Of a DNA stretch of 64,000 bases, positions 40,466-63,800 are shown piece after piece (positions within the stretch are counted from its first letter, which is position 1; each line of letters opens with the position of its first letter). The stretch is taken from sequence record NC_054916.1; one strand, written 5' to 3'. The notes beneath the pieces are model-generated. The model made no database searches, was not told the DNA's origin, and worked only from the letters and a program-made list of their open reading frames with translations. Source of the DNA: Escherichia phage vB_EcoM-G28. A program made the translations under genes and the position numbers.

Positions 40466-40469
<4 letters not shown>

Positions 40470-41839: not shown

Positions 41840-41843
41840 AAAG

Positions 41844-41897: not shown

Positions 41898-41903
41898 AGC
41901 TTA

Positions 41904-42190
<287 letters not shown>

Positions 42191-42194
42191 AAAG

Positions 42195-42248
42195 TCCTCA
42201 TGTTATGTCAGTAAGATTATTATAACACAACACGAGGGACTTGTAAAC
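42195..42248 (-). promoter_or_regulatory. Early promoter plus leader module, duplicated copy
   Basis: Third identical copy of the 54-mer, inside duplication copy 2. Confidence 0.55.
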
Positions 42249-42251
42249 AGC

Positions 42252-43839
<1,588 letters not shown>

Positions 43840-43847
43840 AATAAAAT

Positions 43848-43861
43848 GGGCCTTGCGGCCC
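43848..43861 (-). terminator. Stem-loop between nrdB and denA
   Basis: gggcc-ttgc-ggccc. Confidence 0.4.
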
Positions 43862-43868
43862 ACACTCC

Positions 43869-45047
43869 TTAAAAATATTTTTTAAAACTCATCATAACTT
43901 TATCATCAACATCATTATCAATCTGTGCAACAAGGTAAGATGACAGTTCTACTTCTTGTGGCGCGGATTGAACATTATCAGAATTAAGATATTCACGAAT
44001 CCAAGGATATGGATGTTTAACCGGAGCATCGGTAATTGGGCATGGAAGACCGCACTGTTTCATACGAGATACAGTTAAGTAATCAATAAAGCTCCACATG
44101 CTATTTGTATTTAATCCAGGAACATCGCCATCTTTAAATAAATGAACTGCCCAATCTTTTTCTTGGCGGTTAACTTCCATGAAAATATCAACTGCTTCTT
44201 GTTCACACTCTTGAGCAATTTTAACCCATTCATCGCCATCAGTACCGGATTGAAGTTGACGAATAATATATTGGGTGCCTTTAAGGTGAAGCTGCTCATC
44301 ACGTGCAATGAACTTCATAATCTTGGCATTACCTTCCATGATTTCCATGTTCTTATGGAAGTTAAAGGTACATGCAAAAGATACATAAAAACGAATAGCT
44401 TCTAAGGCATTAATAACGTGCAAACAGAGGTAAAGAGATTTCATTAGTGCTCGTTTAGCTTCGGCTTCTTGTTTAATAGCTCGATTTAAACGAAAAACAG
44501 CATCAGGAGATTCTTTAGCTAGTTCTGTAAATTCTTTAGCGTTTTCCCATTCACGGGTTTTAGTCAGAACATCATCATAATAACGTCCAATTGATTCAGC
44601 ACGTTTCATGATAGCTTCATCTAATACAATCTCATCAAATACCTTTGACGGATCAGTATAAAGATTTCGCATGATATGTGTATATGAACGACTATGAATA
44701 GTTTCACTAAAAGTCCATGTAGCAACCCATGTATCAAGACTTGGGTCTGAAATTAATGACATAAGTACAGCAGATGGCGCACGACCCTGAATGCTATCTA
44801 GAAGTGATTGATACTTCAGATTATTAGTAAAAATATCTTGCTGATATTGAGGAAGCTTGTTAAATTGTGCAGCATCCATCATTAAGTTTACTTCTTCAGG
44901 ACGCCAGAAAAATGACAACTGCTTTTCGGTTAAATCTTCAAAAACTTTATGACGTTGAATATCATAACGCGCAATACCAAGACCTGAACCGAAGAACATA
45001 GGTTCTTTTAAAACATCAACTGGATTTGTATTAAAAACTGTAGACAT
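43869..45047 (-). CDS. nrdB: Ribonucleotide reductase small subunit, uninterrupted (no intron)
   Basis: 392 aa from MSTVFNTNPVD; continuous reading frame; ATG overlaps the mobE stop. Confidence 0.9.
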   Translation of the reverse strand: MSTVFNTNPVDVLKEPMFFGSGLGIARYDIQRHKVFEDLTEKQLSFFWRPEEVNLMMDAAQFNKLPQYQQDIFTNNLKYQSLLDSIQGRAPSAVLMSLISDPSLDTWVATWTFSETIHSRSYTHIMRNLYTDPSKVFDEIVLDEAIMKRAESIGRYYDDVLTKTREWENAKEFTELAKESPDAVFRLNRAIKQEAEAKRALMKSLYLCLHVINALEAIRFYVSFACTFNFHKNMEIMEGNAKIMKFIARDEQLHLKGTQYIIRQLQSGTDGDEWVKIAQECEQEAVDIFMEVNRQEKDWAVHLFKDGDVPGLNTNSMWSFIDYLTVSRMKQCGLPCPITDAPVKHPYPWIREYLNSDNVQSAPQEVELSSYLVAQIDNDVDDKVMMSFKKYF

Positions 45048-45778
45048 TAATTTTTCCTCTTTAAAATTCTGCCGCGTTTCCAACCTGGCGGTATAATATC
45101 ATCTTTACCTATAAGCGTGCATTCACTTCCATTATTAATCCATTTCTTACCGCGGATTCCTTTATAATCTCTTGGTTGTATTTTGTCAAACTTTGCATCA
45201 AGTTGATATGCCCAACGAAATCCATAGGCATATTGAAATTTACCCTCAGCACAATATTTGATATTTGACCCGTTTCCATTAACTGATCTGGACGCTGCCG
45301 CAATAGAGTGAAAGGTTTCTATGAAATCCCCATCTAATGAGAATTTATGTATTTCGATAGATGGGCATGCATACCTATTCACGTTTGATACATGTTGTTT
45401 AGTTTCGTTTTTATGATGCTTGCCTAACATTCCTCTAGGATGAGGATTATTTTTCCAATATTTCTTAAAGAAATCAGAATTAGCTTTAGCAAATAATTTT
45501 CTGTGCAAGCTATACAATCTGTTATTAATTCTATTACCAGCTTTATCTGTTGCCATTAACGTTAACGCAGAGGCAAGACCAAAATGGCCTTCATTTATCT
45601 TGCATAGTAATAGATGCGCTATAAAATGTTCTCTAGCTGTTAATTCAACTAAATTTTCTTTATCATCAGAACCTCCCATGCATTTAGGGACTATATGATG
45701 TGTCTCTTTATATTCGGATAAAGGTTCCCGAGCCTGAGCTCGGGAAATTAGATCATTATAGATTTTTTGATAATTCAT
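45047..45778 (-). CDS. mobE: HNH-family homing endonuclease in the nrdA-nrdB intergenic position (MobE/Hef-like)
   Basis: 243 aa; HNH motif ETHHIVPKCMGG...N...EH; ATG overlaps the nrdA stop (TAATG). Confidence 0.8.
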   Translation of the reverse strand: MNYQKIYNDLISRAQAREPLSEYKETHHIVPKCMGGSDDKENLVELTAREHFIAHLLLCKINEGHFGLASALTLMATDKAGNRINNRLYSLHRKLFAKANSDFFKKYWKNNPHPRGMLGKHHKNETKQHVSNVNRYACPSIEIHKFSLDGDFIETFHSIAAASRSVNGNGSNIKYCAEGKFQYAYGFRWAYQLDAKFDKIQPRDYKGIRGKKWINNGSECTLIGKDDIIPPGWKRGRILKRKN

Positions 45779-48042
45779 TACAATTTACACGCTGCACAAT
45801 CGTCGGCTTTAGGAGTTTCTATTTCATAATCATCAGTACCAGAACCATCACGGGTATTATGATAATAGAAATTTTTAATGCCATAATACCATCCGTATAG
45901 CATGTCATCAATCATTACAGACATTGGAACCTTTCCTTTTGGAAAAATCTGCGGGTCATAATATGTATTCGCTGAAGCTGATTGACATACCCATTTCAGC
46001 ATAATAGCTACCTGCGTAAGATAAGGTTTATTACCTTTCTTAGCTAATTTCCATGTATAATCATAGAGGTCTATGTTATGCTCAATATTGGGCACGACTT
46101 GATTAAAGGAGCCCTCTTTTGATTCTTTAACACTTACCGGTCCACGTGGAGGCTCGATACCGTTTGTACTGTTAGAAACTTGGGAAGATGACTCACATGG
46201 CATAAGTGCTGATAATGTGCTATTACGGATGCCAAAGAGCTTAAGGTCTTCCCGCAGCGACGACCAGTCACAAACGTATTTTGGAGCTGCGATTTGGTCA
46301 ATCTTTTTATTGTACCAGTCGATAGGTAATTCGCCTCGAGACCAACGAGTGTCTGAATAATATTCGCAAGGTCCTTTTTCTTTGGCGAGCTTAATGGATG
46401 CTTTAATGAGTCCATACTGTAATCTCTCAAATAGTTCATGTGTTAAATCGTTAGCATCTTCATAAGAAGCAAAGTTACTTGCCAGCCAAGCTGCATAGTT
46501 GGTAACACCTACACCGAGGTTACGACGCTTTTTAGCTTTTTCTGCTTCAGGAACTGGATATCCTTGGTAATCCAAAAGATTATCAAGAGCACGAACTTGA
46601 ACTTCTGCCAATTCATTAATTTTATCTTGGTCTTGCCAATCGAAGTTATCCAACACAAATGCAGATAACGTGCACAATCCAATTTCAGCATCAGGACTAT
46701 TCACATCATTTGTTGGAATAGCAATTTCACAACACAGGTTACTCTGACGAATCGGTGCCTTTTCACGAATAAATGGAGTATAGTTATTCGTATTATCAAT
46801 GAACTGTACATAAATCCTTGCTGTTCCTGATCGTTCAGTCATGAGCAATTCAAATAGTTCACGGGCTTTAATACGCTTTTTGCGAATATTAGGGTCTTTT
46901 TCTGCTGCTTCGTATAATTCGCGGAAACGGTCTTGGTCTTTAAAATAAGAATAATAAAGCTCGCCACCCATTTCATGCGGACTGAACAAAGTAATGTAGT
47001 CGTTCTTTCCAAAACGTTCCATCATCAAATCATTCAGCTGGACGCCATAATCCATATGACGGATACGGTTTTCTTCTACACCTTTGTTATTTTTCAAAAC
47101 GAGAAGATTTTCAACTTCCAAATGCCAAATGGGATAATAAGCAGTAGCAGCGCCGCCACGAATTCCGCCCTGTGAACATGATTTAACAGCAGTCTGAAAA
47201 TGTTTCCAAAAAGGAATAACACCAGTATGGCGTACTTCACCCATGCCAATCTTAGAACCTTCGGCACGAATCATACCAACGTTAATACCAATTCCAGCGC
47301 GTTTAGAGATATATTCAACGATTGAAGCGGAAGCCTTATTGATAGACTTCAGCGAATCACCTGCCTCAATAACAACACATGAACTAAACTGTCGAGTCGG
47401 AGTACGGCAACCAGCCATAATAGGAGTTGGCAATGAAATCTGTCGAGTAGATACTGCTTCATAAAAACGGATAACATGTTTTAATCTATCAACAGGTTCA
47501 TCTTGATGTAATGCCATTCCAATAGTCATAAATGCAAACTGTGGAGTTTCATAAATTTGACCAGTGGTTTTATCTTTAACTAGATATTTTTCTTTTAATT
47601 GCATCGCCCCGGAATAAGTAAATTCCATATCCCGCTCGTGCTTAATTTTTGATTCTAAAAATGTAATTTCTTCTGCTGAATATTTTGACAATAATTCAGG
47701 GTCATATTTACCTTCATTTACACAGTAAGAAATATGGTCAATAAATGAACGTGGTTCATACTGCCCATAAACATGCTTACGAAGAGCAAACATTAAACAG
47801 CGTGCAGCTACATATTGATAATCAGGCTCTTCAACCGAAATAGAATTCGCAGCGGCCTTAATGACAATAGTCTGAATATCATCAGTTGTCATTCCATCAC
47901 GGAGATATGATTTAATATTTTCATATAATTCATAAGGATTTACAGATGTTCCTTCAGCTGCCCAAGATAAAACTTTAATAATTTTTTGTGGATCAAAGCT
48001 CTGAGAAACGCCACTACTTTTGATAACATTAATTAATTGCAT
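45778..48042 (-). CDS. nrdA: Ribonucleotide reductase large subunit
   Basis: 754 aa; size as T4 NrdA. Confidence 0.95.
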   Translation of the reverse strand: MQLINVIKSSGVSQSFDPQKIIKVLSWAAEGTSVNPYELYENIKSYLRDGMTTDDIQTIVIKAAANSISVEEPDYQYVAARCLMFALRKHVYGQYEPRSFIDHISYCVNEGKYDPELLSKYSAEEITFLESKIKHERDMEFTYSGAMQLKEKYLVKDKTTGQIYETPQFAFMTIGMALHQDEPVDRLKHVIRFYEAVSTRQISLPTPIMAGCRTPTRQFSSCVVIEAGDSLKSINKASASIVEYISKRAGIGINVGMIRAEGSKIGMGEVRHTGVIPFWKHFQTAVKSCSQGGIRGGAATAYYPIWHLEVENLLVLKNNKGVEENRIRHMDYGVQLNDLMMERFGKNDYITLFSPHEMGGELYYSYFKDQDRFRELYEAAEKDPNIRKKRIKARELFELLMTERSGTARIYVQFIDNTNNYTPFIREKAPIRQSNLCCEIAIPTNDVNSPDAEIGLCTLSAFVLDNFDWQDQDKINELAEVQVRALDNLLDYQGYPVPEAEKAKKRRNLGVGVTNYAAWLASNFASYEDANDLTHELFERLQYGLIKASIKLAKEKGPCEYYSDTRWSRGELPIDWYNKKIDQIAAPKYVCDWSSLREDLKLFGIRNSTLSALMPCESSSQVSNSTNGIEPPRGPVSVKESKEGSFNQVVPNIEHNIDLYDYTWKLAKKGNKPYLTQVAIMLKWVCQSASANTYYDPQIFPKGKVPMSVMIDDMLYGWYYGIKNFYYHNTRDGSGTDDYEIETPKADDCAACKL

Positions 48043-48359
48043 AAGTCCTCAACTTGAAAATCGTCTTTAAACAATCGGTTAACTATATGAGCTATTATAT
48101 CACCATGACACGGCTTTGGTTTACATGTGCATCCTAGCCTCATTCCACGTAAAGGCTCTAAATGTGCTTTAGTTATTTCTCCGGATTTAATTCGACGTAT
48201 AAAATCTTTTTTGAATAATTCAATGGCAGCCTCCCGGCTGCCAGCATCTTTACCGACGTAATTTCCCCAAAATGTACCGCGGTGAATATTAACATCAAAG
48301 TCGGATTTATATTTATTCACTACCCGGCATAGACGGCCCGCGCGGTGATAATTCAGCAT
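48033..48359 (-). CDS. Hypothetical protein (nrdA.x block)
   Basis: 108-aa ORF. Confidence 0.55.
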
Positions 48360-48588
48360 ATTGTTTTTCCGTCAAAACAGTAATATCGTAGTAACAGTCA
48401 GAAGAAGTTTTAACTGTGGAAATTTTATTATCAAAATACTCACGGGTCATTTTATGAGTATAATATTTTTTACCATAAATGATAATAGGCTGATTTGGTC
48501 CTGGAACTTCTAACTCGCTTGGGTTAGGAAGTGTAAAAAGAACGGCACCAGAAGTATCTTTAAATCGTAAAATCATATATCCTCGCAA
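48313..48588 (-). CDS. Hypothetical protein (nrdA.x block)
   Basis: 91-aa ORF. Confidence 0.5.
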
Positions 48589-48599
48589 TTAAATTAAAA

Positions 48600-48911
48600 T
48601 TATACCGCCATTTTTCCTTTCAAGACACCGTGGGATTGATAATCTTTGAGAACGAAATCTTTAGGTCTAAGTTTAAGAACATATTTTAATTGTTCTTTAG
48701 TAGAAAGATATCGGAATTTATAAGGTAGACCACTTATTACCAGCTCACAAAGCTCTTTAGGTTCACGCCTCAAAATTTCTTTACATTGTTCTACGTGATT
48801 CATATAGATATGAGTATTACCACCAGAAAATATCAAATCTCCTGGAATAAGATTACACATCTTAGCTACAATATGAACTAACGTAGCATATGATGCAATA
48901 TTAAACGGTAG
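48600..48911 (-). CDS. td: Thymidylate synthase, exon 2
   Basis: 103 codons from LPFNIASYATLVH; the leading Met in the ORF track is an artefact spanning the intron's last G. Confidence 0.9.
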   Translation of the reverse strand, partial: LPFNIASYATLVHIVAKMCNLIPGDLIFSGGNTHIYMNHVEQCKEILRREPKELCELVISGLPYKFRYLSTKEQLKYVLKLRPKDFVLKDYQSHGVLKGKMAV

Positions 48912-49356
48912 CATTATGTTCAGATAAGGTCGTTAATCTTACCCCGGAATTATATCCAGCTGCATGTCACCATGCAGATCAGACTATATCTCCAACTTGT
49001 TAAAGCAAGTTGTCTATCGTTTCGAGTCACTTGACCCTACTCCCCAAAGGGATAGTCGTTAGGCATTTATGTAGAACCAATTCCATTTATCAGATTTTAC
49101 ACGATAAGTAACTAATCCAGACGAAATTTTAAAATGCCTTTTCCATCTCTTTTCAAAATCTTTAGCACTTCCTACATATACTTTATTGTTTAAAGTATTT
49201 TTAATCTGATAAATTCCGCTTTTCATAAATACCTCTTTAAATATAGAAGTATTATTAAAGGGCAGTCCTACAATTTAGCACGGGATTGTCTACTAGAGAG
49301 GTTCCCCGTTTAGATAGATTACAAGTATAAGTCACCTTATACTCAGGCCTCAATTA
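48912..49356 (-). ncRNA. Group I self-splicing intron of td, about 445 nt, with a deleted endonuclease ORF
   Basis: Intron 5' end TAATTGAGGCCTGAGTATAAGGTGACTTATACTTGTAATC and 3' end ...CTGAACATAATG match the T4 td intron as I recall it; exon 1 ends in U. Confidence 0.85.
49059..49226 (-). pseudogene. I-TevI homing endonuclease remnant (55 aa, internal in-frame deletion)
   Basis: MKSGIYQIKNTLNNKVYVGSAKDFEKRWKRHFK joined directly to ISSGLVTYRVKSDKWNWFYINA; the catalytic and DNA-binding regions between them are missing. Confidence 0.85.
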
Positions 49357-50728
<1,372 letters not shown>

Positions 50729-50740
50729 ATATTATTTTCC

Positions 50741-50983
50741 TTAAACAGACTTTTTCACAATTTTCCAATCAGCTTTAAACTGCTCGACGTCAGAATGGTA
50801 AATCCAGAATCCTGCGCTTTCTCCATCCTCATAAAGAGGGCATCTATCACATTCATCTTCCCATCCCATATCACGCAAAAGATGTTCAGCTTTTTCAACA
50901 AGTTCAGAATCTTTACCGATGATATTAAAATACCATTTACCTCTAACTTCCGAATCTTTGATGCTCTGGCGTTGTAATCTCAT
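50741..50983 (-). CDS. Hypothetical protein (frd.x block)
   Basis: 80-aa ORF with an early promoter at about 51003..51038. Confidence 0.5.
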   Translation of the reverse strand: MRLQRQSIKDSEVRGKWYFNIIGKDSELVEKAEHLLRDMGWEDECDRCPLYEDGESAGFWIYHSDVEQFKADWKIVKKSV

Positions 50984-51037
50984 TTTATTCTCCTTAGTTG
51001 ATAGGGTAATAGTATCACACTACTACCCTTCTGTAAA

Positions 51038-51403
51038 CTACTTTTTGAAAGTTTTTCGCAAAAGTTCAATGATTTCATCTACATTGTTTTCGTCTACAAT
51101 GCAGTGAATTTTTGTTACACCAGAAACCAGGTCTTTGACTTCATCTTCTTCAGAAGTCGGTTCTTTATATTCTCGGAAACAATGAAATTCATCTTCGCAA
51201 ACATTGAAGTAAAAATGCTTTCCATTTGCGCATTCAATGTGTTTTATTACTCTAAATCCATCAACAAAGAAAGCTTCTTTAACTTCAAACCATCCGCCAT
51301 TTTCTTGAATAATTTTAACTATTGATGAATTAGAACGTGGGCGATAATTAATAAATGTATCAATAAGTCTTGGAACAAGCTCATACTTTTTACCGGTATA
51401 CAT
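51038..51403 (-). CDS. Hypothetical protein (frd.x block)
   Basis: 121-aa ORF. Confidence 0.5.
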   Translation of the reverse strand: MYTGKKYELVPRLIDTFINYRPRSNSSIVKIIQENGGWFEVKEAFFVDGFRVIKHIECANGKHFYFNVCEDEFHCFREYKEPTSEEDEVKDLVSGVTKIHCIVDENNVDEIIELLRKTFKK

Positions 51404-51447
51404 TACGTTTTCCTCATTTTAATAGGGGCTTGATAGCCCCTTGATAA

Positions 51448-51738
51448 TTACTGTTCAATAAATCCTGTGTAAAATTCTACATCTTCAGCATCCATACCGT
51501 CGCAGTATTCATTAACCATAAACTGTTTAAGACGATCTAAAGGACCTTCAATAACAACTGAAACATTACAATTAGGATCATTTAGTGCGCTTATGATACT
51601 AAGTTCAGGATAACGATTACGAATAATCTCTTCAATATATTCAAAATCAACAACATCAATATCAATTTTAGCCATATTATTTTCCTCTTTAATCATCAGC
51701 AGTATTGCCGATAGTTGTATAGTACCATGGAAGGACAA
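51448..51738 (-). CDS. Hypothetical protein (frd.x block)
   Basis: 96-aa ORF. Confidence 0.5.
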
Positions 51739-51791
51739 GGATGTAAACAGTTTTGTGAAAAAAATTTTTGAAATAAAAAAAGGGGACCTCT

Positions 51792-51810
51792 AGGGTCCCC
51801 AATTAATTAG
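51792..51810 (-). terminator. Intrinsic terminator after gene 32
   Basis: ggggacc-tctag-ggtcccc followed on the minus strand by a T run. Confidence 0.6.
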
Positions 51811-51822
51811 TAATATAATCTA

Positions 51823-52731
51823 TTAAAGGTCATTCAAAAGGTCATCCAGGTCCGTGTCATCAGCACTAGATGAACTGCCAGAGCTTGAGCTCATAAAATC
51901 ATCTTCAGTTTTTGTATTGAAGTCATCAACATTGAATGCATCCAAATCATCAGCAACCTTATCAGCTTTCTTAGCGGCAGTTGCTGCGGCACCGCCCATC
52001 ACAGCAGTTCCCATAACTTGACTGAATTTAGTGCTCAGTTCTTCAAACGATTTGAATTTATCTTTAGAAGTCATTTCAGAAAGGTCAACCATTTGTTCGA
52101 ACAGTTCTTTCTGGAAAGATTCATCGTCAATGTTTGGAATCGCAGATTGATTCAGGAATTTAGATTCGTCGTAGTTACTAAATCCAGAAACTTGTTTAAC
52201 TTTCAGTACAAAATTAGCACCTTCCCACGGACAAGTTACATCAACCGGAGTTTCACCCATTTCAACATCAACTGCAATCATTGCATTGATTTTATCCCAG
52301 ATTTTCTTACCGAAACGGTATTTAAATACTTTACCTTCGTTTTCTGGAGCAGCTGGGTCTTTTACTACAAGAATGTTAGCCCAGTAAGAAGTTTTACGTT
52401 TAACAAGACTGTACTCTTTATTGTCAGTGTTGTACAGATCATTTTTACTGATGTATTGACATACTGGGCAAGAATCGTAATCACCGTGGGTAGATGAACA
52501 TGTTTCAATATACCATTTACCATTTTTCTTGAAACCGTGATTTACAAGAATTGCGAATGGTGCTTGTTCATCATTTTTAGACGGAAGAAAACGAATTACT
52601 GCTTGACCGTTACCCGCATTATCGAGTTTCAGTTTCCACTCGCCTTTATCTTCAGAAGAAAAACCACCTTTATTTCCAGCCAGTTTAGCCATTTGTGCAG
52701 CGAGTTCAGCAGTAGATTTACGTTTAAACAT
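51823..52731 (-). CDS. 32: Single-stranded DNA-binding protein gp32
   Basis: 302 aa; acidic Ser/Asp-rich C-terminal tail; size as T4 gp32. Confidence 0.95.
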
Positions 52732-52762
52732 TTTTATTTCCTTTTTAATTTAATTAACAGTT

Positions 52763-52797
52763 GGTGCTATGACGATGTATGACCTCATAGCTGGTCA
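52763..52797 (-). promoter_or_regulatory. gp32 translational operator pseudoknot in the gene 32 leader
   Basis: Minus strand reads GACCAGCTATGAGGTCATACATCGTCATAGCACC, followed by an unstructured A/U-rich run before the ATG. Confidence 0.6.
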
Positions 52798-52814
52798 GTG
52801 AGATAATTATAATC

Positions 52815-52822
52815 TATTTATA
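52815..52822 (-). promoter_or_regulatory. T4-type late promoter for gene 32
   Basis: TATAAATA on the minus strand upstream of the leader. Confidence 0.5.
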
Positions 52823-52830
52823 ATAAGCAA

Positions 52831-53484
52831 TTAATACTTGCATGATTTCACAGTTTCAATAAAAACACTTTTAGCTTTCTGTGAATCAATATTTAAAATT
52901 TTTCTATAAGCCTTTAACTTTATAGAATAATTATTCCAGACTAAATTATCAGTCTGTTCATCATGTTTATCAATTATATTTAAAAACGAATCAAGCAAGA
53001 TAAACGTCTCAAACGAAATTATATTCGATTGAAGTAGTTTAAAAATATAACTTGATTGAACTTTTGGATTATACTCAAAGATTTCTTTAAAAGCAGAAAC
53101 TTCAACTTTCTTACTAAAATAATAAATGTTGCGAATATCTTCTTCAAACTTAAATTTAATTTGCTTTAAGCGTCCGATATATTCACGATAAAACACAAGT
53201 GCATCAGCGTCAGAGATGTCACCAATCCAAGCATCCTGGTTAGCAACAAGATTGCTTATAAAGATTAAAGCAAGTTCCTTTAATTTATATTTTTCTGATA
53301 ACTTCTGGAAAAAATACTTATCCCTTCGCTTTTGATAAGCGGCATCAGACACCCGCATGCACCAATTATACTTAATTACATCATACTTTCCATTCATATG
53401 TTGTTTTATCATTAAGTATAATTTATAAACTGATTTACCATCAATATATCTTTCACCACCAGCAGGCATGCGGAGTTTAATCAT
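52831..53484 (-). CDS. 59: Helicase loader gp59
   Basis: 217 aa; size and position as T4 gp59. Confidence 0.9.
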   Translation of the reverse strand: MIKLRMPAGGERYIDGKSVYKLYLMIKQHMNGKYDVIKYNWCMRVSDAAYQKRRDKYFFQKLSEKYKLKELALIFISNLVANQDAWIGDISDADALVFYREYIGRLKQIKFKFEEDIRNIYYFSKKVEVSAFKEIFEYNPKVQSSYIFKLLQSNIISFETFILLDSFLNIIDKHDEQTDNLVWNNYSIKLKAYRKILNIDSQKAKSVFIETVKSCKY

Positions 53485-53819
53485 AGTAGAAAATCTAATG
53501 TATTAGTTTTTTCACAACGAACAATAGAAGGACGTAAAAGATTTTCGTCAATAGCTTCTGACTGAATTTTTTCAATTATACCCGAAGGAATAAATTTAGC
53601 AAATTGAGTTTCAGGAATAGAATTTTCTTCTAAGAATGCTGTTGTAGCTTCAAGATAACTCATTCCAAACTCTTCTACCATTTTTTCAATAATAAATCCA
53701 TTTTCTTGGCGGTCAAGAAGTTTTGCTATTTCATCCTTTTCTTTCTTGATTGAAAGTTCTTTTTCTGAAAGACCGGTCTCATCGACCGGACGAATATCAT
53801 TTAGAGAAAACTGTGTCAT
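53481..53819 (-). CDS. 33: Late transcription co-activator gp33
   Basis: 112 aa from MTQFSLND (track ORF 115 aa). Confidence 0.8.
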   Translation of the reverse strand: MTQFSLNDIRPVDETGLSEKELSIKKEKDEIAKLLDRQENGFIIEKMVEEFGMSYLEATTAFLEENSIPETQFAKFIPSGIIEKIQSEAIDENLLRPSIVRCEKTNTLDFLL

Positions 53820-54066
53820 AAAGTTCAACTACCTCTTCGGTTTCAGCTTCAAACACATCACGGTTATCTTTATGATACAAAGCTAATAGACGATTAAACA
53901 TCTTACCATCAACGCCAAGTTCATCTTTGGCACGAATTCGAATATCTTTAATCAATTCATTATAACCAGAAATTTTCAGTTTATGATCAGATGCTTCTTT
54001 AATAAATTTAGCCAAGTCTTCGCCATGGATAGCTTCATCAAATTCAACCATTTCTTTTTTAGCCAT
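53797..54066 (-). CDS. dsbA: dsDNA-binding protein DsbA
   Basis: 89 aa; position between rnh and 33. Confidence 0.75.
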   Translation of the reverse strand: MAKKEMVEFDEAIHGEDLAKFIKEASDHKLKISGYNELIKDIRIRAKDELGVDGKMFNRLLALYHKDNRDVFEAETEEVVELYDTVFSK

Positions 54067-54074
54067 TATTCACC

Positions 54075-54992
54075 TCAAAATTCATTAATGCTATTAGTTA
54101 ATTTAGAAAGACCCGCTTTTACAAAATATGAATAAATTTTGCCACGCGGTGGTAATTTATATGAATTATAGTAATTCACAATGTTTGAAGCAATATTATC
54201 AGGAATATAATCAAAGTCAATTAGAACTAAATTTTCTTTATATCGATTATATTCAGATTCAGTGAGAAGCACCTTAGCTTGCTCACGGTCATTAGCAATA
54301 GCTTCAACAATAGAAGTTTTCATTGAAGGAGTTCGTTCACCTTCAACTCTGGTAAACCAAAAGTCAGATCGCACTTTAACTGAAGCGACGTTATCTTTTT
54401 TGTCGCCTTTAAGGATTTTAGTCATACAGTCAATTTCAGCAGAACCGCTTTTAATTTTAACCCATTTCTTGTGCATCGGTGACCATTGCTTAACATTTGG
54501 GTATTTGTGAAGTTGAGTAAAGTCACCATCCGACGAAATGATTAAAATCTTATGTCCTTCTAAAGAGAACTTTTTAACAAGAACAGCAATGTGGTCATCT
54601 GCTTCATACTTATCAATATCCATAACAATGTATGGCATATAAGCTTTCAATTCATCTATAACTTTATGGCTGGATTCAAAATAACCTTCCCAGTCCCAAG
54701 TAGATTCTTCTCGTGCTTTTCCACGGTTTTTCTTATAGTAATAAGCGAAATCACGGCGCCAATATCCCGATTTTGCGTTATCGATACACAGTACAATTTT
54801 AGTGTATCCAAGAGTTTTTGCTTTTTTGACATTAAACTTAATTGAGTTCAATATCAAATGACGAACCATTGATAAATTAATTTTTTCTTTATCTGGGAAG
54901 TTTACTAGAGCAGTCGAAAGTGCAATTTGACTAAAGTCAATTAAGCAGATTCCTTCTTTGTAATCTTCATCCAGCATCATTTCTAAATCCAT
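54075..54992 (-). CDS. rnh: RNase H (5'-3' flap exonuclease)
   Basis: 305 aa from MDLEMMLDEDYKEG (track ORF 310 aa). Confidence 0.9.
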   Translation of the reverse strand: MDLEMMLDEDYKEGICLIDFSQIALSTALVNFPDKEKINLSMVRHLILNSIKFNVKKAKTLGYTKIVLCIDNAKSGYWRRDFAYYYKKNRGKAREESTWDWEGYFESSHKVIDELKAYMPYIVMDIDKYEADDHIAVLVKKFSLEGHKILIISSDGDFTQLHKYPNVKQWSPMHKKWVKIKSGSAEIDCMTKILKGDKKDNVASVKVRSDFWFTRVEGERTPSMKTSIVEAIANDREQAKVLLTESEYNRYKENLVLIDFDYIPDNIASNIVNYYNSYKLPPRGKIYSYFVKAGLSKLTNSINEF

Positions 54993-55054
54993 ATGAACCT
55001 CGTTCAATTAGTGAGATTTCTATTATATACTATCCAAATCTTAAAGTAAACAAG

Positions 55055-55062
55055 TATAAATA
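55055..55062 (+). promoter_or_regulatory. T4-type late promoter for gene 34
   Basis: Exact TATAAATA about 35 nt upstream of the ATG. Confidence 0.6.
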
Positions 55063-55096
55063 CTTATTATTGAAAACACAATAGGAGCCCGGGAGA

Positions 55097-58000
55097 ATGG
55101 CCGAGATTAAAAGAAAGTTCAGAGCAGAAGATGGTCTGGACGCAGGTGGCGATAAAATAATCAACGTAGCTTTAGCTGATCGTGCCGTAGGAACTGACGG
55201 TGTTAACGTTGATTACCTAATTCAAGAAAACACAGTTCAACAATACGATCCAACTCGTGGATATTTAAAAGATTTTGTAATCATTTATGATAACCGCTTT
55301 TGGGCTGCTATAAATGATATTCCAAAACCAGCAGGAGCTTTTAATAGTGTACGCTGGAGAGCATTACGTACTGATGCTAATTGGACAACTGTTTCATCAG
55401 GACCTTATCAATTAAAGTCAGGCGAATCAATTTCAGTTGATACTGCAGCTGGTAATGACATTACATTTACTTTACCATCTTCTCCAATTGATGGAGATAC
55501 TATCGTTCTTCAAGATATTGGTGGAAAACCTGGTGTTAACCAAGTTTTAATTACAGCTCCGGTGCAAAGCATTGTAAATTTTAGAGGTCAGCAAGTACGA
55601 TCAGTACTAATGACTCATCCAAAATCACAGATAGTTTTAATTTTTAGTAATCGTCTGTGGCAAATGTATGTTGCTGATTATAGTAGAGAAGCTGTAGTCG
55701 TAACACCGGCAAGTCTTTATCAGGCGCAATCTAACGATTTTATCGTGCGCAGATTTACTTCTGCTTCAGCAATTAATATTAAACTTCCAAGATTTGCTAA
55801 TCATGGCGATATTATTAATTTCGTTGATTTAGATAAACTGAATCCACTTTATCATACAATTGTTACTACATACGATGAAACTACTTCAATACAAGAAGAT
55901 GGAACTCATTCTATTGAAGGTCGTACATCGATTGATGGTTTCTTAATGTATGATGATAATGAAAAATTGTGGAGATTGTTTGACGGGGATAGTAAAGCAC
56001 GTTTACGTATTATAACAACTAATTCTAGTATTCGTCCAAATGAAGAAGTTATGGTATTTGGAGCAAATAACGGAACAACCCAAACAATTGAACTTCAGCT
56101 TCCAACCGATATTTCCATTGGTGATACTGTTAAAATTTCCATGAATTATATGAGAAAAGGACAAACAGTTAAAATCAAAGCTGCCGGTGAAGATAAAATT
56201 GCTTCTTCAGTTCAATTGCTGCAATTCCCAAAACGTTCAGAGTATCCGCCTGAAACTAAATGGGTGACTGTTCAAGAATTAGTTTTTAACGGCGAAACTA
56301 ATTATGTTCCAGTTTTACAGCTTGCTTACATAGAAGATTCTGATGGAAAATACTGGGTTGTGCAACAAAACGTTCCAACAGTTGAAAGAGTTGATTCTTT
56401 AAATGATTCTACTAGAGCAAGATTAGGCGTAATAGCTTTAGCTACACAAGCTCAAGCAAATGCTGATTTAGAAAATTCTCCGCAAAAAGAATTAGCAATT
56501 ACACCAGAAACATTAGCTAACCGTACTGCTACAGAAACTCGTAGAGGTATCGCAAGAATAGCAACTACTGCCCAAGTGAACCAGGATACTACATTCTCTT
56601 TTGCTGATGATATTATCATCACTCCTAAAAAGCTGAATGAAAGAACTGCTACAGAAACTCGTAGAGGTGTTGCTGAAATTGCGACGCAGCAAGAAACTAA
56701 CGCAGGTACTGATGATACTACAATCATCACTCCTAAAAAGCTTCAAGCTCGACAAGGTTCTGAATCATTATCTGGTATTGTAACCTTTGTATCTACTGCA
56801 GGAGCTACTCCAGCTTCTAGCCGTGAATTAAATGGTACAAACGTTTATAATAAAAACACTAATAATTTAGTTGTTTCGCCTAAAGCTTTGGATCAGTATA
56901 AAGCTACTCCAACCCAACAAGGTGCAGTAATTTTAGCAGTTGAAAGTGAAGTAATTGCTGGACAGAGTCAAGAAGGATGGGCAAATGCGGTTGTAACGCC
57001 AGAAACGTTACATAAAAAGACATCAACTGATGCAAGAATTGGTTTAATTGAAATTGCTACGCAAAGTGAAGTTAATACAGGAACTGATTATACTCGCGCA
57101 GTCACTCCTAAAACTTTAAATGACCGTAAAGCAACTGAAAGTTTAAGTGGTATAGCTGAAATTGCTACGCAAGTTGAATTCGACGCAGGCGTCGACGATA
57201 CTCGTATCTCTACACCATTAAAAATTAAAACCAGATTTAATAGTACTGATCGTACTTCTGTTGTTGCTCTATCTGGATTAGTTGAATCAGGAACTCTCTG
57301 GGACCATTATACCCTTAATATTCTTGAAGCAAATGAGACACAACGTGGTACACTTCGTGTAGCTACACAAGTTGAAGCTGCTGCAGGAACATTAGATAAT
57401 GTTTTAATAACTCCTAAAAAGCTTTTAGGTACTAAATCTACTGAAGCACAGGAAGGCGTTATTAAAGTTGCAACTCAGTCTGAAACTGTAGCTGGAACGT
57501 CAGCAAATACTGCTGTATCTCCAAAAAATTTAAAATGGATTGTGCAGAGTGAACCTACTTGGGCAGCTACTACCCTGGTAAGAGGTTTTGTTAAAACTTC
57601 ATCTGGTTCAATTACATTCGTTGGTAATGATACAGTTGGTTCAACACAGTCATTAGAATTATACGAGAAAAATAGCTATGCAGTATCACCATATGAATTA
57701 AACCGTGTATTAGCAAATTATTTGCCGTTAAAAGCAAAAGCCGTAGATAGTAATTTACTGGATGGTCTAGATTCATCTCAGTTCATTCGTAGGGATATTG
57801 CACAAACGGTTAATGGTTCACTAACCTTAACACAACAAACGAATCTGAGTGCCCCTCTTGTATCATCTAGTACTGCTACGTTTGGTGGATCAGTTTCAGC
57901 AAATAGTACACTAACCATTTCTAATACTGATGGAATAGCAACTCGTCTGATTTTTGAGAAAGGACCTCAAACTGGAACGAACCCGGCTCAAACGATGACA

Positions 58001-58969
58001 GTCAGCGTGTGGGGGAATCAATTTAGTGGGGAATCAAACACAACACGTTCTACCGTATTTGAAGTTAGTGATGAAACATCTTATCACTTTTATTCTCAAC
58101 GCGATAAAGATGGTAATATAGCATTTAGCATTAATGGTACTGTAATGCCAATAAATGTGAATGCTTTAGGTTCTTTGAACGCGAACGGCGTTGCAACATT
58201 TGGTAGTTCAGTTACTGCTAATGGCGAATTTATCAGTAAATCGTCGAATGCTTTTAGAGCAATAAACGGTGATTATGGATTCTTTATTCGTAATGATGCT
58301 GCTAACACCTATTTTATGCTTACTGCATCTGGTGATCAGACTGGTGGATTTAATGGATTACGTCCATTATCAATTAATAATCAATCTGGTCAGGTTACAA
58401 TTGGTGAAAGCTTAATCATTGCCAAAGGTGCTACTATAACTTCAGGTGGTTTAACTGTCAACTCGAGAATTCGTTCTCAAGGTACTAAAACTGCTGACCT
58501 ATACACCCGTGCACCAACATCTGATACTGTAGGATTCTGGTCAATTGACATTAATGATTCAGCTACTTATAACCAGTTCCCGGGTTATTTTAAAATGGTT
58601 GAAAAAACTAATGAAGTGACTGGACTTCCATACTTAGAACGTGGCGAAGAAGTTAAATCTCCTGGTACGCTGACTCAGTTTGGTAACACACTCGATTCGC
58701 TTTACCAAGATTGGATTACTTATCCAACGACCCCAGAAGCGCGCACCACTCGCTGGACGCGTACATGGCAGAAAACCAAAAACTCTTGGTCAAGTTTTGT
58801 TCAGGTATTTGATGGGGGTAACCCTCCTCAGCCATCTGATATCGGTGCTTTACCATCTGATAATGCTATAATGGGGAATCTTACTATTCGTGATTTCTTA
58901 CGAATTGGTAATGTTCGCATTATTCCTGACCCAGTGAATAAAACGGTTAAATTTGAATGGGTTGAATAA
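55097..58969 (+). CDS. 34: Long tail fibre proximal subunit gp34
   Basis: 1290 aa; internal ~40-aa repeats (TPKKL...TATETRRG...IAT); size as T4 gp34. Confidence 0.9.
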   Translation: MAEIKRKFRAEDGLDAGGDKIINVALADRAVGTDGVNVDYLIQENTVQQYDPTRGYLKDFVIIYDNRFWAAINDIPKPAGAFNSVRWRALRTDANWTTVSSGPYQLKSGESISVDTAAGNDITFTLPSSPIDGDTIVLQDIGGKPGVNQVLITAPVQSIVNFRGQQVRSVLMTHPKSQIVLIFSNRLWQMYVADYSREAVVVTPASLYQAQSNDFIVRRFTSASAINIKLPRFANHGDIINFVDLDKLNPLYHTIVTTYDETTSIQEDGTHSIEGRTSIDGFLMYDDNEKLWRLFDGDSKARLRIITTNSSIRPNEEVMVFGANNGTTQTIELQLPTDISIGDTVKISMNYMRKGQTVKIKAAGEDKIASSVQLLQFPKRSEYPPETKWVTVQELVFNGETNYVPVLQLAYIEDSDGKYWVVQQNVPTVERVDSLNDSTRARLGVIALATQAQANADLENSPQKELAITPETLANRTATETRRGIARIATTAQVNQDTTFSFADDIIITPKKLNERTATETRRGVAEIATQQETNAGTDDTTIITPKKLQARQGSESLSGIVTFVSTAGATPASSRELNGTNVYNKNTNNLVVSPKALDQYKATPTQQGAVILAVESEVIAGQSQEGWANAVVTPETLHKKTSTDARIGLIEIATQSEVNTGTDYTRAVTPKTLNDRKATESLSGIAEIATQVEFDAGVDDTRISTPLKIKTRFNSTDRTSVVALSGLVESGTLWDHYTLNILEANETQRGTLRVATQVEAAAGTLDNVLITPKKLLGTKSTEAQEGVIKVATQSETVAGTSANTAVSPKNLKWIVQSEPTWAATTLVRGFVKTSSGSITFVGNDTVGSTQSLELYEKNSYAVSPYELNRVLANYLPLKAKAVDSNLLDGLDSSQFIRRDIAQTVNGSLTLTQQTNLSAPLVSSSTATFGGSVSANSTLTISNTDGIATRLIFEKGPQTGTNPAQTMTVSVWGNQFSGESNTTRSTVFEVSDETSYHFYSQRDKDGNIAFSINGTVMPINVNALGSLNANGVATFGSSVTANGEFISKSSNAFRAINGDYGFFIRNDAANTYFMLTASGDQTGGFNGLRPLSINNQSGQVTIGESLIIAKGATITSGGLTVNSRIRSQGTKTADLYTRAPTSDTVGFWSIDINDSATYNQFPGYFKMVEKTNEVTGLPYLERGEEVKSPGTLTQFGNTLDSLYQDWITYPTTPEARTTRWTRTWQKTKNSWSSFVQVFDGGNPPQPSDIGALPSDNAIMGNLTIRDFLRIGNVRIIPDPVNKTVKFEWVE

Positions 58970-58977
58970 GAGGTATT

Positions 58978-60093
58978 ATGGAAAAATTTATGGCAGAGTT
59001 TGGACAAGGATATGTCCAAACGCCATTTTTATCGGAAAGTAATTCAGTAAGATATAAAATAAGTATAGCGGGTTCTTGCCCTCTTTCTGCAGCAGGACCA
59101 TATGTTAAATTTCAGGATAATCCTATCGGAAGCCAAACATTTAACGCAGGTCTTCATTTAAGAGTTTTTGACCCTTCTACAGGAGCATTAGTTGATAGTA
59201 AGTCATATGCTTTTTCGACTTCAAACGATACTACATCAGCTGCTTTTGTCAGTTTCATGAATTCTTTTTCAAACAACAGACTTGTTGCTATATTAACCAG
59301 TGGAAAGGTTAATTTTCCTCCTGAAGTAGTATCTTGGCTAAGAACCGCAGGAACGTCTGCTTTTCCATCTGATTCTATATTGTCAAGATTTGACGTATCA
59401 TATGCCGCTTTTTACACTTCTTCTAAAAGAGCTATTGCATTAGAACATGTTAAACTAAGTAATAGAAAAAGTACAGACGATTATCAAACTATTTTAGATG
59501 TTGTATTTGACAGTTTAGAAGACGTTGGAGCTACAGGATTTCCTAAAAGAACATATGAAAGTGTTGAGCAATTTATGTCAGCGGTTGGTGGAACTAATAA
59601 CGAAATTGCACGTTTACCAACTTCATCCGCGATAAGTAAACTCTCTGATTATAATTTAATTCCTGGCGATGTTCTTTATCTTAAAGCACAGTTATATGCT
59701 GATGCCGATTTACTTGCTCTTGGAACTACAAATATATCTATCCGTTTTTATGATGAATCGAATGGATATATTTCTTCAACACATGCTGAGTTTACTGGAC
59801 AAGCTGGGTCATGGGAATTAAAGGAAGATTATGTAGTTATTCCAGAAACCGCAGCGGGATTTACAATATATGCACAAAGAACTGCTCAAGCTGGTCAAGG
59901 TGGCATGAGAAATTTAAGCTTTTCTGAAGTATCAAGAAATGGCGGAATTTCAAAACCTGCTGAATTTGGCGTCAATGGCATTCGAGTTAATTATGTCTGT
60001 GAATCTGCTTCACCTCCAGATATAATGGTACTTCCTACGCAAGCATCGTCTAAAACTGGTAAAGTGTTTGGACAAGAATTTAGAGAAGTTTAA
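58978..60093 (+). CDS. 35: Long tail fibre hinge connector gp35
   Basis: 371 aa; synteny. Confidence 0.85.
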   Translation: MEKFMAEFGQGYVQTPFLSESNSVRYKISIAGSCPLSAAGPYVKFQDNPIGSQTFNAGLHLRVFDPSTGALVDSKSYAFSTSNDTTSAAFVSFMNSFSNNRLVAILTSGKVNFPPEVVSWLRTAGTSAFPSDSILSRFDVSYAAFYTSSKRAIALEHVKLSNRKSTDDYQTILDVVFDSLEDVGATGFPKRTYESVEQFMSAVGGTNNEIARLPTSSAISKLSDYNLIPGDVLYLKAQLYADADLLALGTTNISIRFYDESNGYISSTHAEFTGQAGSWELKEDYVVIPETAAGFTIYAQRTAQAGQGGMRNLSFSEVSRNGGISKPAEFGVNGIRVNYVCESASPPDIMVLPTQASSKTGKVFGQEFREV

Positions 60094-60820: not shown

Positions 60821-63800
60821 ATGGCTACTTTAAAACAAATACAATTTAAAAGAAGCAAAACTGCAGGAGCACGTCCTGCCGCTTCAGTATTAGCCGAAGG
60901 TGAATTGGCTATAAACTTAAAAGACCGCGTACTTTTTACTAAAGACGACCAAGGAAATATTATTGATCTGGGTTTTGCTAAAGGCGGTAGCATTGACGGG
61001 AATGTTATTCATACAGGAAACTATAATCAAACTGGTGATTATACTTTAAATGGCACTTTCACTCAGACAGGTAATTTTAATTTAACTGGTATTGCTCGAG
61101 TAACTCGCGATATTATTGCCGCCGGGCAGATTATGACCGAAGGCGGAGAACTTATTACAAAAAGTTCAGGTACAGCACATGTTCGTTTTCATGATTCAGC
61201 TGATCGTGAACGTGGAATCATTTATGCCCCGGCTAATGATGGATTAACTACGCAAGTAGTTAATATCCGCGTTCAAGACTACGCCGCTGGTGATGAAAGC
61301 ACCTATGCATTTTCAGGCAGTGGCCTATTTACTTCACCTGAAGTATCAGCATGGAAATCTATGTCAACTCCTCAGATTTTGACAAATAGAGTTATTACTA
61401 ATAATAAATCTACGAGCGATTATGACATTTATTCTATGGCAGACAACGTTCCATTGTCTGAAAGCACTACTGCTATTAATCATCTCCGTGTTATGCGCAA
61501 TGCTGTAGGCGCTGGTGTATTCCATGAAGTTAAAGATAATGATGGAATAACTTGGTATACTGGAGATGGCTTAGACACTTATCTTTGGTCGTTTACCTGG
61601 TCCGGTGGATTGAAAGCAGGCCATTCTATTTCTGTTGGTACTCCTGGTGGCAATAAAGGATACTCTGAATTAGGGACTGCTTCAATTTCTCTTGGCGATA
61701 ATGATACCGGGCTAAAATGGCATCAGGATGGATATTATTTCAGCGTCAATAATGGAACGAAAACATTTTTATTTAGCCCTAGCGAAACAACTAGCCTAAG
61801 AAAATTTGTAGCTGGATATTCTACTAATGGAACAGATTTAACTACTCCTCCGACTGAAAACTATGCATTAGCCACTGTTGTTACTTACCATGATAATAAC
61901 GCGTATGGTGACGGTCAAACTCTTTTAGGTTATTATCAGGGCGGTAATTATCACCACTATTTCCGCGGTAAGGGTACTACAAACATTAATACTCATGGCG
62001 GTTTGTTAGTTACTCCAGGCAATATTGACGTTATTGGTGGTTCGGTTAATATTGATGGTCGTAATAATGCTTCTACGCTGTTGTTTAGAGGTAACACAAC
62101 TGGTGCTAGTTCAGTTGATAATATGACAATTTCTGTATGGGGTAATACCTTTACTAATCCTAGTGTAGGTAATCGTAAAAACGTTATGGAAATTTCTGAC
62201 GCAACTAGTTGGATGAGCTATATTCAAAGACTTACTACCGGTGAAGTAGAAATGAACGTCAATGGTTCATTTGAATCATCTGGTGTTACTGCTGGAAATA
62301 GAGGAGTTCACACAACAGGCGAAATTTCATCTGGAGCAGTGAATGCGCTTCGCATTTGGAACGCAGATTATGGAGCCATTTTTAGACGTTCAGAAGGCAG
62401 TCTTCATATTATTCCAACTGCTTACGGTGAAGGTAAACATGGTGATATCGGTCCACTTCGCCCGTTTAGTATGGCTTTAGATACCGGTAAAGTTACTATT
62501 CCAGATTTACAATCAAGTTACAATACGTTTGCTGCTAACGGTTATATTAAATTTGTTGGTCATGGAGCGGGTGCCGGCGGTTATGACATTCAATATGCTC
62601 AAGCGGCTCCTATTTTCCAGGAAATTGATGATGATGCTATAAGCAAATATTATCCTATTGTTAAACAGAAGTTTTTAAACGGTAAATGCGTTTGGTCTTT
62701 AGGTACTGAAATTAATTCGGGTACATTTGTTTTACACCATATCAAAGAAGATGGATCACAAGGCCATACATCTCGTTTTAATCAAGACGGCACAGTTAAT
62801 TTCCCTGATAATGTTCAGGTTGGTGGTGGTGAAGCTACTATTGCTCGCAATGGTAACATCTGGTCTGATATCTGGAAAACGTTTACTTCTGCCGGTGATA
62901 CTACAAATATTCGCGATGCTATTGCGACTCGTGTTTCGAAAGAAGGCGACACGATGACTGGCAAATTAATCGTTAAAAGAGACTCCGACGCTATTAACTT
63001 AGCTGCGCCTTCAGCGACTGATGCAAGTTACCTTCTTTCTACTGGCGGTGGAGAAAATCAATGGTATATTGGTAAAGGCGGCGCTGATAATACCGTATCA
63101 TTTTACAACTATAAAACCAATGGGGCTGTGCAAATTAACTCTATTGGTGAAATCGCGCTGATTCCACAAGGTGCTGCAACATTTAACTTTAACCGCGATC
63201 GTCTCCATATAAATGGGACTCAATGGACTGCACATCAAGCTGGTGACTGGGTTAACCAATGGCATCAAGAAGCTCCTATATTTGTGGATTTTGGTAGTGT
63301 CGGCAATGACTGCTATTATCCTATTATTAAAGGAAAATCTGTTATTACGAATGAAGGATACGTATCTGGTGTTGATTTCGGTATGCGCCGTATCACTAAC
63401 CAATGGGCTCAGGCTATTATCCGTGTTGGTAACCAGGAAAATGCTAGCGATCCGCAAGCTATCTTCGAATTCCACCATAATGGAAACATGTACGTTCCTG
63501 ACATGGTTAAAGCTGGAGTAAGATTATCAGCTGGTGGAGGTGACCCTGCATGGACAGGCGCATGTGTTGTTATTGGTGATAATGACACTGGGTTAGTTCA
63601 TGGCGGTGATGGACGAATTAACATGGTTGCAAATGGAGTGCATATTGCTTCATGGTCGTCCGCTTACCATCTCCATGAAGGTCTTTGGGATACTACTGGT
63701 GCTTTGTGGACTGAACACGGAAGAGCTATTATTTCTTTTGGTCATTTAATCCAACAAAGCGATGCCTATTCCACATTTGTCCGCGATGTTTATGTCCGTT

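Follow-up and report, generated by a model that had tools for sequence, protein, structure and literature searches.

In phage T4, gene 32 and gene 59 are separated by segG. In the DNA analysed here, a stretch of 64 kb that we call the window, the same two genes lie only 99 bp apart. This raises the questions of what the 99 bp hold, whether segG was ever present at this site, and whether the phage is T4 itself or a relative with a homing endonuclease set of its own. An earlier note on this DNA argued for a relative. The positions it gave for T4, segG between genes 32 and 59 and segD between genes 23 and 24, are right in the T4 annotation (NC_000866):

146948-147853: gene 32
147909-148541, minus strand: segG, 633 bp, between gene 32 and gene 59
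148543-149196: gene 59
106561-107232, minus strand: segD, between genes 23 and 24
112057-112674: segE
139991-140416: mobE
138458-139057: nrdB intron with a defective I-TevIII, 600 bp

According to the same annotation, the T4 td gene also has an intron, with I-TevI. Whole-window blastn shows collinearity with T4 from 97331 to about 156728, the segments being 92-98% identical. The two are not nearly identical, as there are at least 12 insertion or deletion differences together with a divergent gene 37, and 5/6 of the T4 homing endonuclease positions in this span differ in the window. With the extra HNH gene described below, the alignment upholds the proposal of a T4 relative with a distinct homing endonuclease set, and the window very probably derives from a Tequatrovirus akin to T4 yet distinct from it. 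The insertions at 38332-38859, 40167-40469 and 50483-50728 were considered as endonuclease genes and rejected, since their products have no Pfam nuclease domains and fall into PHROGs of unknown function.

The spacer between gene 59 and gene 32

On the gene strand the locus is arranged as follows:

52831-53484, minus strand: gene 59 (helicase loader, 217 aa), 641/654 nt identical to T4
52732-52830, minus strand: gene 59-gene 32 spacer, 99 bp, directly 5' of the gene 32 ATG at 52731 (ORF map)
51823-52731, minus strand: gene 32 (gp32, single-stranded DNA-binding protein, 302 aa)

The length first given for the gap is exact to the base, bounded by gene 32 at 52731 and by gene 59 at 52831. Read on the gene strand up to the ATG, the spacer is TTGCTTATTATAAATAGATTATAATTATCTCACTGACCAGCTATGAGGTCATACATCGTCATAGCACCAACTGTTAATTAAATTAAAAAGGAAATAAAA. 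It agrees in all 99 bases with positions 141935-142033 of T2 (AP018813, 100% identity), where the gap is also 99 bp, and the likeness to the T2 region takes in the flanking genes, the 302 aa of gp32 and the first 100 nt of gene 32. An ORF scan found no gene-strand ORF of at least 20 aa in the spacer (52732-52830). One ORF of at least 20 aa touches it, 81 aa long and antisense to the start of gene 32, and is regarded as spurious. A GIY-YIG ORF between genes 59 and 32 is absent, so the locus is not of the segG type, and blastn against T4 detected no similarity to segG anywhere in the 64-kb window. We are highly confident that the site is empty, with no trace of segG, and belongs to the T2 type. 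For annotation, the short 59-32 spacer is thus to be read as a complete and well-studied regulatory region and not as an assembly gap. The signals within it are:

52824-52830, minus strand: MotA-box-like TTGCTTA, putative, read off the sequence against the T4 middle-promoter consensus
52815-52822, minus strand: T4-type late promoter motif TATAAATA, exact
52806-52811, minus strand: TATAAT, -10 hexamer of the putative middle promoter, read off the sequence
52795-52829, minus strand: segment standing in for T4 segG, 35 bp against 623 bp in T4 (147919-148541; blastn), carrying promoter motifs
52766-52797, minus strand: autoregulatory pseudoknot of the gene 32 mRNA, T2/T6 type, both stems perfectly complementary
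52739-52757, minus strand: A/U-rich operator arm with UUAAA/UAAA repeats, predicted unpaired
52739-52743, minus strand: Shine-Dalgarno AAGGA, 7 nt before the gene 32 AUG

The edges of the blastn alignment are sharp, window 52794 pairing with T4 147918 and window 52830 with T4 148542. The T4 segG (32.1) locus and the window have the same flanking genes, and the leader is conserved between them in the 3' half of the pseudoknot, in the UUAAA arm and at the Shine-Dalgarno sequence. They differ in that T4 carries the free-standing GIY-YIG gene segG, the 3' end of which overlaps the 5' part of the pseudoknot, whereas the window has the 35 bp instead. Unlike in T4, stem 1 and loop 2 of the pseudoknot are of the T2 type in the window, and the operator has one UUAAA unit fewer.

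The middle and late promoters of T4 gene 32 sit inside segG (PMC2988022, PMC535899), and we found the T4 TATAAATA at 148011 within segG, some 150 nt ahead of the ATG of gene 32 (147853). In the window the gene 32 signals are packed into 99 bp because no endonuclease gene displaces them. T4 late promoters have TATAAATA at about -10 and function without a -35 element, and the exact motif in the spacer marks a predicted late promoter of gene 32 that is presumably used in vivo. In MotA-dependent middle promoters the box (a/t)(a/t)(a/t)TGCTT(t/c)A precedes a sigma-70 -10 hexamer at a distance of 11-13 bp. The MotA-box-like AATTGCTTAT, made up of TTGCTTA and, before it, the last two bases (AA) of the stop codon of gene 59, agrees with 8/10 MotA consensus positions and is separated by an 11-bp spacer from a perfect TATAAT, a consensus match that makes a MotA-dependent middle promoter plausible. 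A generic sigma-70 scan gave no -35/-10 pair at this putative promoter, as expected if it is MotA-dependent, and in this A/T-rich stretch the generic promoter and terminator scan was uninformative (2 sites found, 2.0 expected). The earlier note had held that the gap contains just the gp32 operator and a late promoter. Both were located, and the word "just" has to be given up for a probable MotA-type middle promoter that lies there as well.

The pseudoknot is H-type with two stems and spans -66 to -35 relative to the gene 32 AUG. It reads UGACC-A-GCUAUGA-GGUCA-UACAUCG-UCAUAGC, with stem 1 formed by UGACC/GGUCA, a loop 1 of one base, stem 2 formed by GCUAUGA/UCAUAGC, and UACAUCG as loop 2. Nested folding recovered the 7-bp stem 2 and predicted the 35 nt downstream to be unpaired. 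A permissive Rfam search of 48500-53500 returned the td group I intron alone. Because no Rfam family covers the gene 32 pseudoknot, the assignment here is by direct pairing and by identity to T2, for whose pseudoknot, the same in sequence as this one, PMC3014915 cites the NMR structure 2TPK. Downstream, the operator arm UUAAUUAAAUUAAAAAGGAAAUAAAA runs into the ribosome-binding site. At the gp32 operator, binding is nucleated at the pseudoknot and extends from there, by cooperative spreading of gp32, along the unstructured arm and across the ribosome-binding site (PMC535899, PMC3014915). By covering the UUAAA arm and the ribosome-binding site, gp32 would bring about autogenous translational repression of gene 32; we infer such autoregulation in this phage from its identity to T2 and from the experiments on T4 and RB69 (PMC535899).

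Gene 32 alleles and the SegG target

Taken as a whole, gene 32 is about equally close to T2 (97.6% identity) and T4 (97.4%). A table of mismatches per 100 nt shows that the similarity is distributed as a mosaic: nt 1-100 match T2 exactly with 6 differences from T4, and nt 201-300 are T4-like, with 2 differences from T4 and 8 from T2. From the T4-like nt 201-300 it follows that the gene 59-32 locus has recombined with T4-type alleles. Codon 77, which is Asn in T2 and Thr in the window, lies in this T4-like part, and we compared it, together with a second cluster of differences nearer the 5' end, with the segG status of other phages.

52501-52503, minus strand: gene 32 codon 77 (nt 229-231), ACA (Thr), the segG-linked allele
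52666-52680, minus strand: gene 32 nt 52-66, GCTGGAAATAAAGGT, as in segG-less (T2-type) alleles

The survey covered 27 distinct gene 32 alleles, 13 with segG and 14 without, taken from 20 GenBank loci and from relatives in IMG/VR. It was built on the GenBank loci because an IMG/VR search with gp32 gave only four close relatives (L007-L010), the remainder being distant T4-like phages. Codon 77 is ACA or ACG in 13/13 of the alleles with segG. Among those without segG it is AAC or AAT (Asn) in 11/14 and ACA in 3/14, the exceptions with a Thr codon being the window, sb3 and L010. The association of codon 77 with segG gives a Fisher p of about 3e-5, which is uncorrected and comes from alleles that are not phylogenetically independent. 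At nt 52/53, GC is found in 13/14 of the segG-less alleles and AA in 12/13 of the alleles with segG.

A genome with an endonuclease gene should have target sites that are refractory to the enzyme, and codon 77 is for this reason a candidate part of the SegG target. Liu et al. in 2003 reportedly found SegG to cut about 332 bp from the insertion site, a distance which, if counted from the end of gene 59, ends at about nt 233 of gene 32. Perhaps, then, the empty site is also resistant to SegG, with Thr77 (ACA) lying within or beside the sequence that SegG recognizes or cleaves, and protecting gene 32. The Thr/Asn difference at codon 77 tracks segG status over the 27 alleles, and the reported cut site, if at about nt 233, falls near this codon. 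However, only about 300 bp lie between codon 77 and segG, so that plain linkage could produce the association, and the alleles are few and phylogenetically non-independent. The equally strong cluster at nt 52-66 is moreover of the segG-less type here, and if the target lay there the phage would be sensitive. On balance, we regard resistance as a doubtful possibility.

SegG targets gene 32 and causes the exclusion of T2 gene 32 markers in crosses of T4 with T2 (PMC2330249). If the site were resistant, the phage, when co-infecting with T4-type phages, would escape both marker exclusion and homing by segG, and, together with the I-TevI remnant described below, empty, resistant, degenerate and intact stages of homing would be found together in 64 kb. 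The immune locus might then be the footprint of a SegG break that was mended by a short conversion tract without segG, or of selection for a resistant target, an explanation that we put forward only tentatively. The codon 77 association offers a cheap and testable guess at where in gene 32 SegG recognizes its target, and likewise at the segG-less phages that T4 marker exclusion would not affect.

The mosaic also bears on the history of the spacer. An ancestor of this phage may have had segG, removed later, either deleted or exchanged in recombination with a relative that lacked it. The T4, segG-linked type of gene 32 nt 201-300, codon 77 included, beside nt 1-100 and a gap of the T2 type, fits a T4-type allele whose 5' end and spacer were replaced from an empty allele. 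Simple deletion is excluded, as the 35 bp are unrelated to segG and have promoter motifs of their own and as the whole gap equals T2 base for base; the promoters embedded in segG likewise disfavour a deletion of the gene (PMC2988022). For replacement by recombination, the converse event, in which an empty-site phage acquired from a T4-type allele a short conversion tract ending before segG, gives the same pattern. We consider secondary loss unlikely. For the empty T2-type site itself, a spacer that was never invaded looks the same as one that was invaded and later exchanged for an empty allele in a recombination event.

Homing endonuclease genes elsewhere in the window

The other intervals that bear on the endonuclease set are:

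9233-9514, minus strand: antisense ORF in the 23-24 interval, in place of T4 segD, 93 aa (88 aa from a second ATG at 9499)
14656-15273, plus strand: segE (GIY-YIG homing endonuclease, 205 aa; Pfam SegE_GIY-YIG, E = 3e-9), collinear with T4 112057-112674
16781-17473, plus strand: free-standing HNH/NUMOD3 endonuclease gene (230 aa, predicted), between uvsW and uvsW.1
44371-44374, minus strand: intron-less nrdB junction, where the T4 600-bp intron is absent (blastn)
45047-45778, minus strand: mobE variant (243 aa, HNH and NUMOD1), between nrdA and nrdB
49354-49905 and 48600-48914: td exons, flanking the td intron
48915-49353, minus strand: td group I intron, shortened to 439 nt (Rfam RF00028, E = 4e-8, below the gathering score)
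49059-49226, minus strand: I-TevI remnant, 55 aa (translation compared with T4 I-TevI; Pfam GIY-YIG and I-TevI_DNA-bd)

The absence of segD and the presence of nothing but an antisense ORF between genes 23 and 24 were described correctly from the sequence, the 88 aa reported at first being the length from the second ATG and 93 aa that from the first. In the blastn alignment 361 bp of the window (9192-9552) stand for T4 106519-107275, which contains segD. The whole 23-24 interval is 418 bp long with a single ORF, on the opposite strand, and this ORF matches phrog_6003 (E = 7e-50, function unknown), whose profile begins at the second ATG. We ruled out that it is a remnant of SegD, to which it has no similarity. 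The interval recurs in 85 records (record counts, here and below, include duplicate GenBank/RefSeq entries and near-identical isolates) and is 100% identical in GEP001, JE01, EP01 and KIT06 and 95-97% identical in JS98-like and Bp7-like phages. T2 differs in having only 84 bp at this position.

The extra HNH gene that had been placed after uvsW is found at 16781-17473 and is absent from T4, to which the window shows a 678-bp insertion at 16778-17455, after uvsW (blastn). The protein matches Pfam NUMOD3 (E = 8e-14) and phrog_655 (homing endonuclease, E = 4e-60), and the next ORF (81 aa) is UvsW.1. The gene is absent from T2 as well and present in T6, with 47 records in all. T6 (YP_010067330) has the same 693-bp HNH gene at the same insertion point between uvsW and uvsW.1. 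In this span T6 has segD, segE and the HNH gene; unlike the window, which has neither, it keeps segD and an additional ORF between genes 18 and 19. We found no experimental study of the T6 HNH gene (YP_010067330) in the literature.

The mobE variant also falls into phrog_655 (E = 1e-57). Its N-terminal 56 aa, with the HNH motif, are about 98% identical to T4 MobE and its C-terminal part diverges, so that T4 MobE (141 aa as annotated) has the N-terminal HNH part alone in common with the 243-aa window protein. At the DNA level window 45048-45609 differs from T4 139720-140246, which comprises the 3' part of mobE and nrdB.1 (blastn). The divergent part is 98.8% identical to a gene annotated as mobE in RB3, RB5, RB7 and RB10 (53 records). 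The mobE variant and the uvsW-adjacent HNH protein are 46% identical over the HNH domain and have in common the motif ETHHI(V/I)P(K/R)CMGG...NLVELTA(R/E)EHFIAH; by these matches both products are MobE-like HNH homing endonucleases (phrog_655) and predicted nucleases. The RB3-type mobE and segE are both present in the window and had both been omitted from the earlier note.

The view that nrdB is intron-less is confirmed at 44371-44374, where the T4 intron (138458-139057) with its defective I-TevIII is absent. The junction is continuous in 589/699 matching records. In this respect the window differs from RB3, which has an nrdB intron with an intact I-TevIII (PMC2988022).

I-TevI had been called deleted, which is accurate insofar as an in-frame deletion has removed residues 34-223. 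Residues 1-33 and 224-245 are left as a remnant of 55 aa, and the td intron itself is retained. In the blastn comparison with T4 the internal deletion appears at about 49124-49139, and it is bounded by two RHFK-coding direct repeats (AGRCATTTTAAA; AGGCATTTTAAA and AGACATTTTAAA). A functional I-TevI has a catalytic domain (through Glu75 and Asn90), a linker, a zinc finger and a helix-turn-helix. The remnant cannot be an endonuclease, because it has lost the catalytic domain past Arg27, the linker, the zinc finger and most of the helix-turn-helix. Among the best 25 td-intron matches, the 24 others have the full-length gene, and among the records listed the deletion is otherwise found only in Mosigvirus FL18. 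The case resembles that of T4 I-TevIII, where a large internal deletion put an intron endonuclease out of action and the self-splicing intron was kept. It is unlike I-TevIII in that the gene affected is the GIY-YIG gene I-TevI in td and that the deletion is in frame, between RHFK-coding repeats, leaving 55 aa.

Origin and frequency of the pattern

Free-standing genes of the seg and mob families are spread by DNA repair: the encoded enzyme cuts or nicks a target in the adjoining conserved gene of another phage that infects the same cell and lacks the element, and the donor DNA is copied in as the damage is mended (PMC2988022). Homing endonuclease genes are selfish elements, gained through double-strand-break repair in co-infection, and they are lost or decay independently at each site. 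Independent loss or decay at each site would explain why each T-even phage has its own endonuclease set, and the differences at segD, the uvsW-adjacent HNH gene, the nrdB intron, the mobE type and I-TevI would share one common cause with the absence of segG. We infer independent invasion, replacement and decay at each interval of the window, and likewise the evolutionary direction at each site.

Assembly errors, or the derivation of the phage from T4 by laboratory deletion, could in principle mimic such differences, and a perfect 351-bp tandem duplication at 41696-42397 might indeed be an assembly artefact. An artefactual origin of the pattern is nonetheless scarcely credible. The variant intervals recur base for base, or nearly so, in independent public genomes (the gap in T2, the HNH gene in T6 and mobE in RB3, and likewise the 23-24 interval in GEP001 and JE01 and the I-TevI deletion in FL18), and all along the backbone the divergence from T4 amounts to 2-8%.

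A probe of 201 bp spanning the spacer matched 499 records of the public phage collection, of which 355 are continuous and thus segG-less, and segG DNA was found in 142 records. With the segG-less junction in 355 records against segG in 142, T4 is the unusual case. A 2010 review had already described T4, with its 15 endonuclease genes, as an oddity among the T-even phages (PMC2988022), and the uneven distribution of introns gave the first hint of intron mobility (PMC2988022). ORF 32.1 is missing from some T4-like genomes and homes from T4 into T2 (PMC535899, PMC2330249), T2 being without segG and a SegG recipient (PMC535899, PMC2330249). In the span studied here T2 has none of these endonuclease genes. 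The segG-less state is therefore ordinary, the phenomenon was known before, and the spacer allele is that of T2; beyond correct annotation, which includes that the phage is not T4, it has little significance.

The combination of sites is another matter. No record of the phage collection exceeds about 97% identity over window stretches of 15-25 kb, and the window is on this ground a mosaic Tequatrovirus and not T4. No one sequenced phage is closest over the entire window, since the best matches vary by segment: PST and T6 for 1-25000, ZCEC14 and RB3 for 25001-45000, and SYGD1 and EC121 for 45000-60000. This exact combination of endonuclease sites appears not to have been sequenced so far. Among the T-even phages, strains are conveniently marked by which endonuclease genes they have and which they lack.

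Mobile-element sites: the td intron, segG and the 23-24 interval

The td intron lacking most of I-TevI is common to the window and Escherichia phage FL18 (PP400780), which is classified as a Mosigvirus:

48915-49353, I-TevI-deleted td intron of the window
L004 20001-20439, its counterpart in the FL18 locus

The two introns differ by 1-2 mismatches in ~440 bp, and td exon 1 and exon 2 of FL18 are diverged from those of the window by ~5% and ~25-30%, respectively. A patch of ~94% identity between the two phages extends from nrdA to frd.2, the remaining FL18 locus being only 67-87% identical. The near-identity of the introns together with the divergence of the exons suggests either that the endonuclease-less td intron was transferred between genera or that the deletion between the RHFK-coding repeats arose repeatedly.

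Linkage of segG to the 5' end of gene 32 is not absolute, because T2-type features occur there in segG-containing phages. Among these, vB_SsoM_113, pSe_SNUABM_01 and JK38 (loci L090, L091 and L092) encode a gp32 of T2 length (302 aa), their gene 32 including the additional Gly codon (nt 64-66), and JK38 carries the complete T2-type nt 52-57. Codon 77 is unchanged across all segG-containing alleles (13/13).

At least three alternative states exist for the T-even 23-24 interval: segD, an unrelated 88-aa phrog_6003 gene, or nothing, the last being the state of T2 (84 bp).

9184-9601, 23-24 interval of the window
L001 14512-15323, the same interval in T4
L005 12492-12574, the same interval in T2

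segD and the phrog_6003 gene both lie antisense to the late genes on either side. JS98-like phages, which belong to another genus, have the phrog_6003 form of the interval at 95-97% identity.

Small genes and a tandem duplication

Three small genes of the window are absent from T4, and a nuclease domain was found in none of their three products:

38332-38859, minus strand, 175-aa gene (phrog_3710) between cd.2 and cd.3
40167-40469, minus strand, 100-aa gene (phrog_2364) between pseT and pseT.1
50483-50728, minus strand, 81-aa gene (phrog_3183) between frd and frd.1

Conversely, T4 cd.4/cd.5 (133651-133969) are missing from the window at ~39235.

A 351-bp unit covering the alc 5' end, the alc-rnlA spacer and the rnlA 3' end is tandemly duplicated (41696-42046 and 42047-42397), whereas T4 has a single copy (136135-136486). 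As a result of the duplication, the alc start is present a second time in truncated form (63-aa ORF, 41999-42190). With copies 100% identical, it is either a very recent event or an assembly artefact.

The genes hoc, alt and 37

12498-13916, minus strand, hoc (472 aa)
26382-30539, minus strand, two tandem full-length alt-like ADP-ribosyltransferase genes (685 aa and 698 aa)

The head decoration protein Hoc is 376 aa in T4. Since the hoc blastn alignments overlap across ~300 bp of T4 (110748-111053), the window's protein probably contains one extra Ig-like repeat. In place of the two alt-like genes, T4 carries a single alt and the short remnants alt.-1/alt.-2, whereas T2 shares the two-gene arrangement with the window (L005 27737-31891). 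In 61007-64000, similarity to T4 stops within gene 37 (distal long tail fibre), which points to a receptor-binding fibre end of a different type from that of T4.
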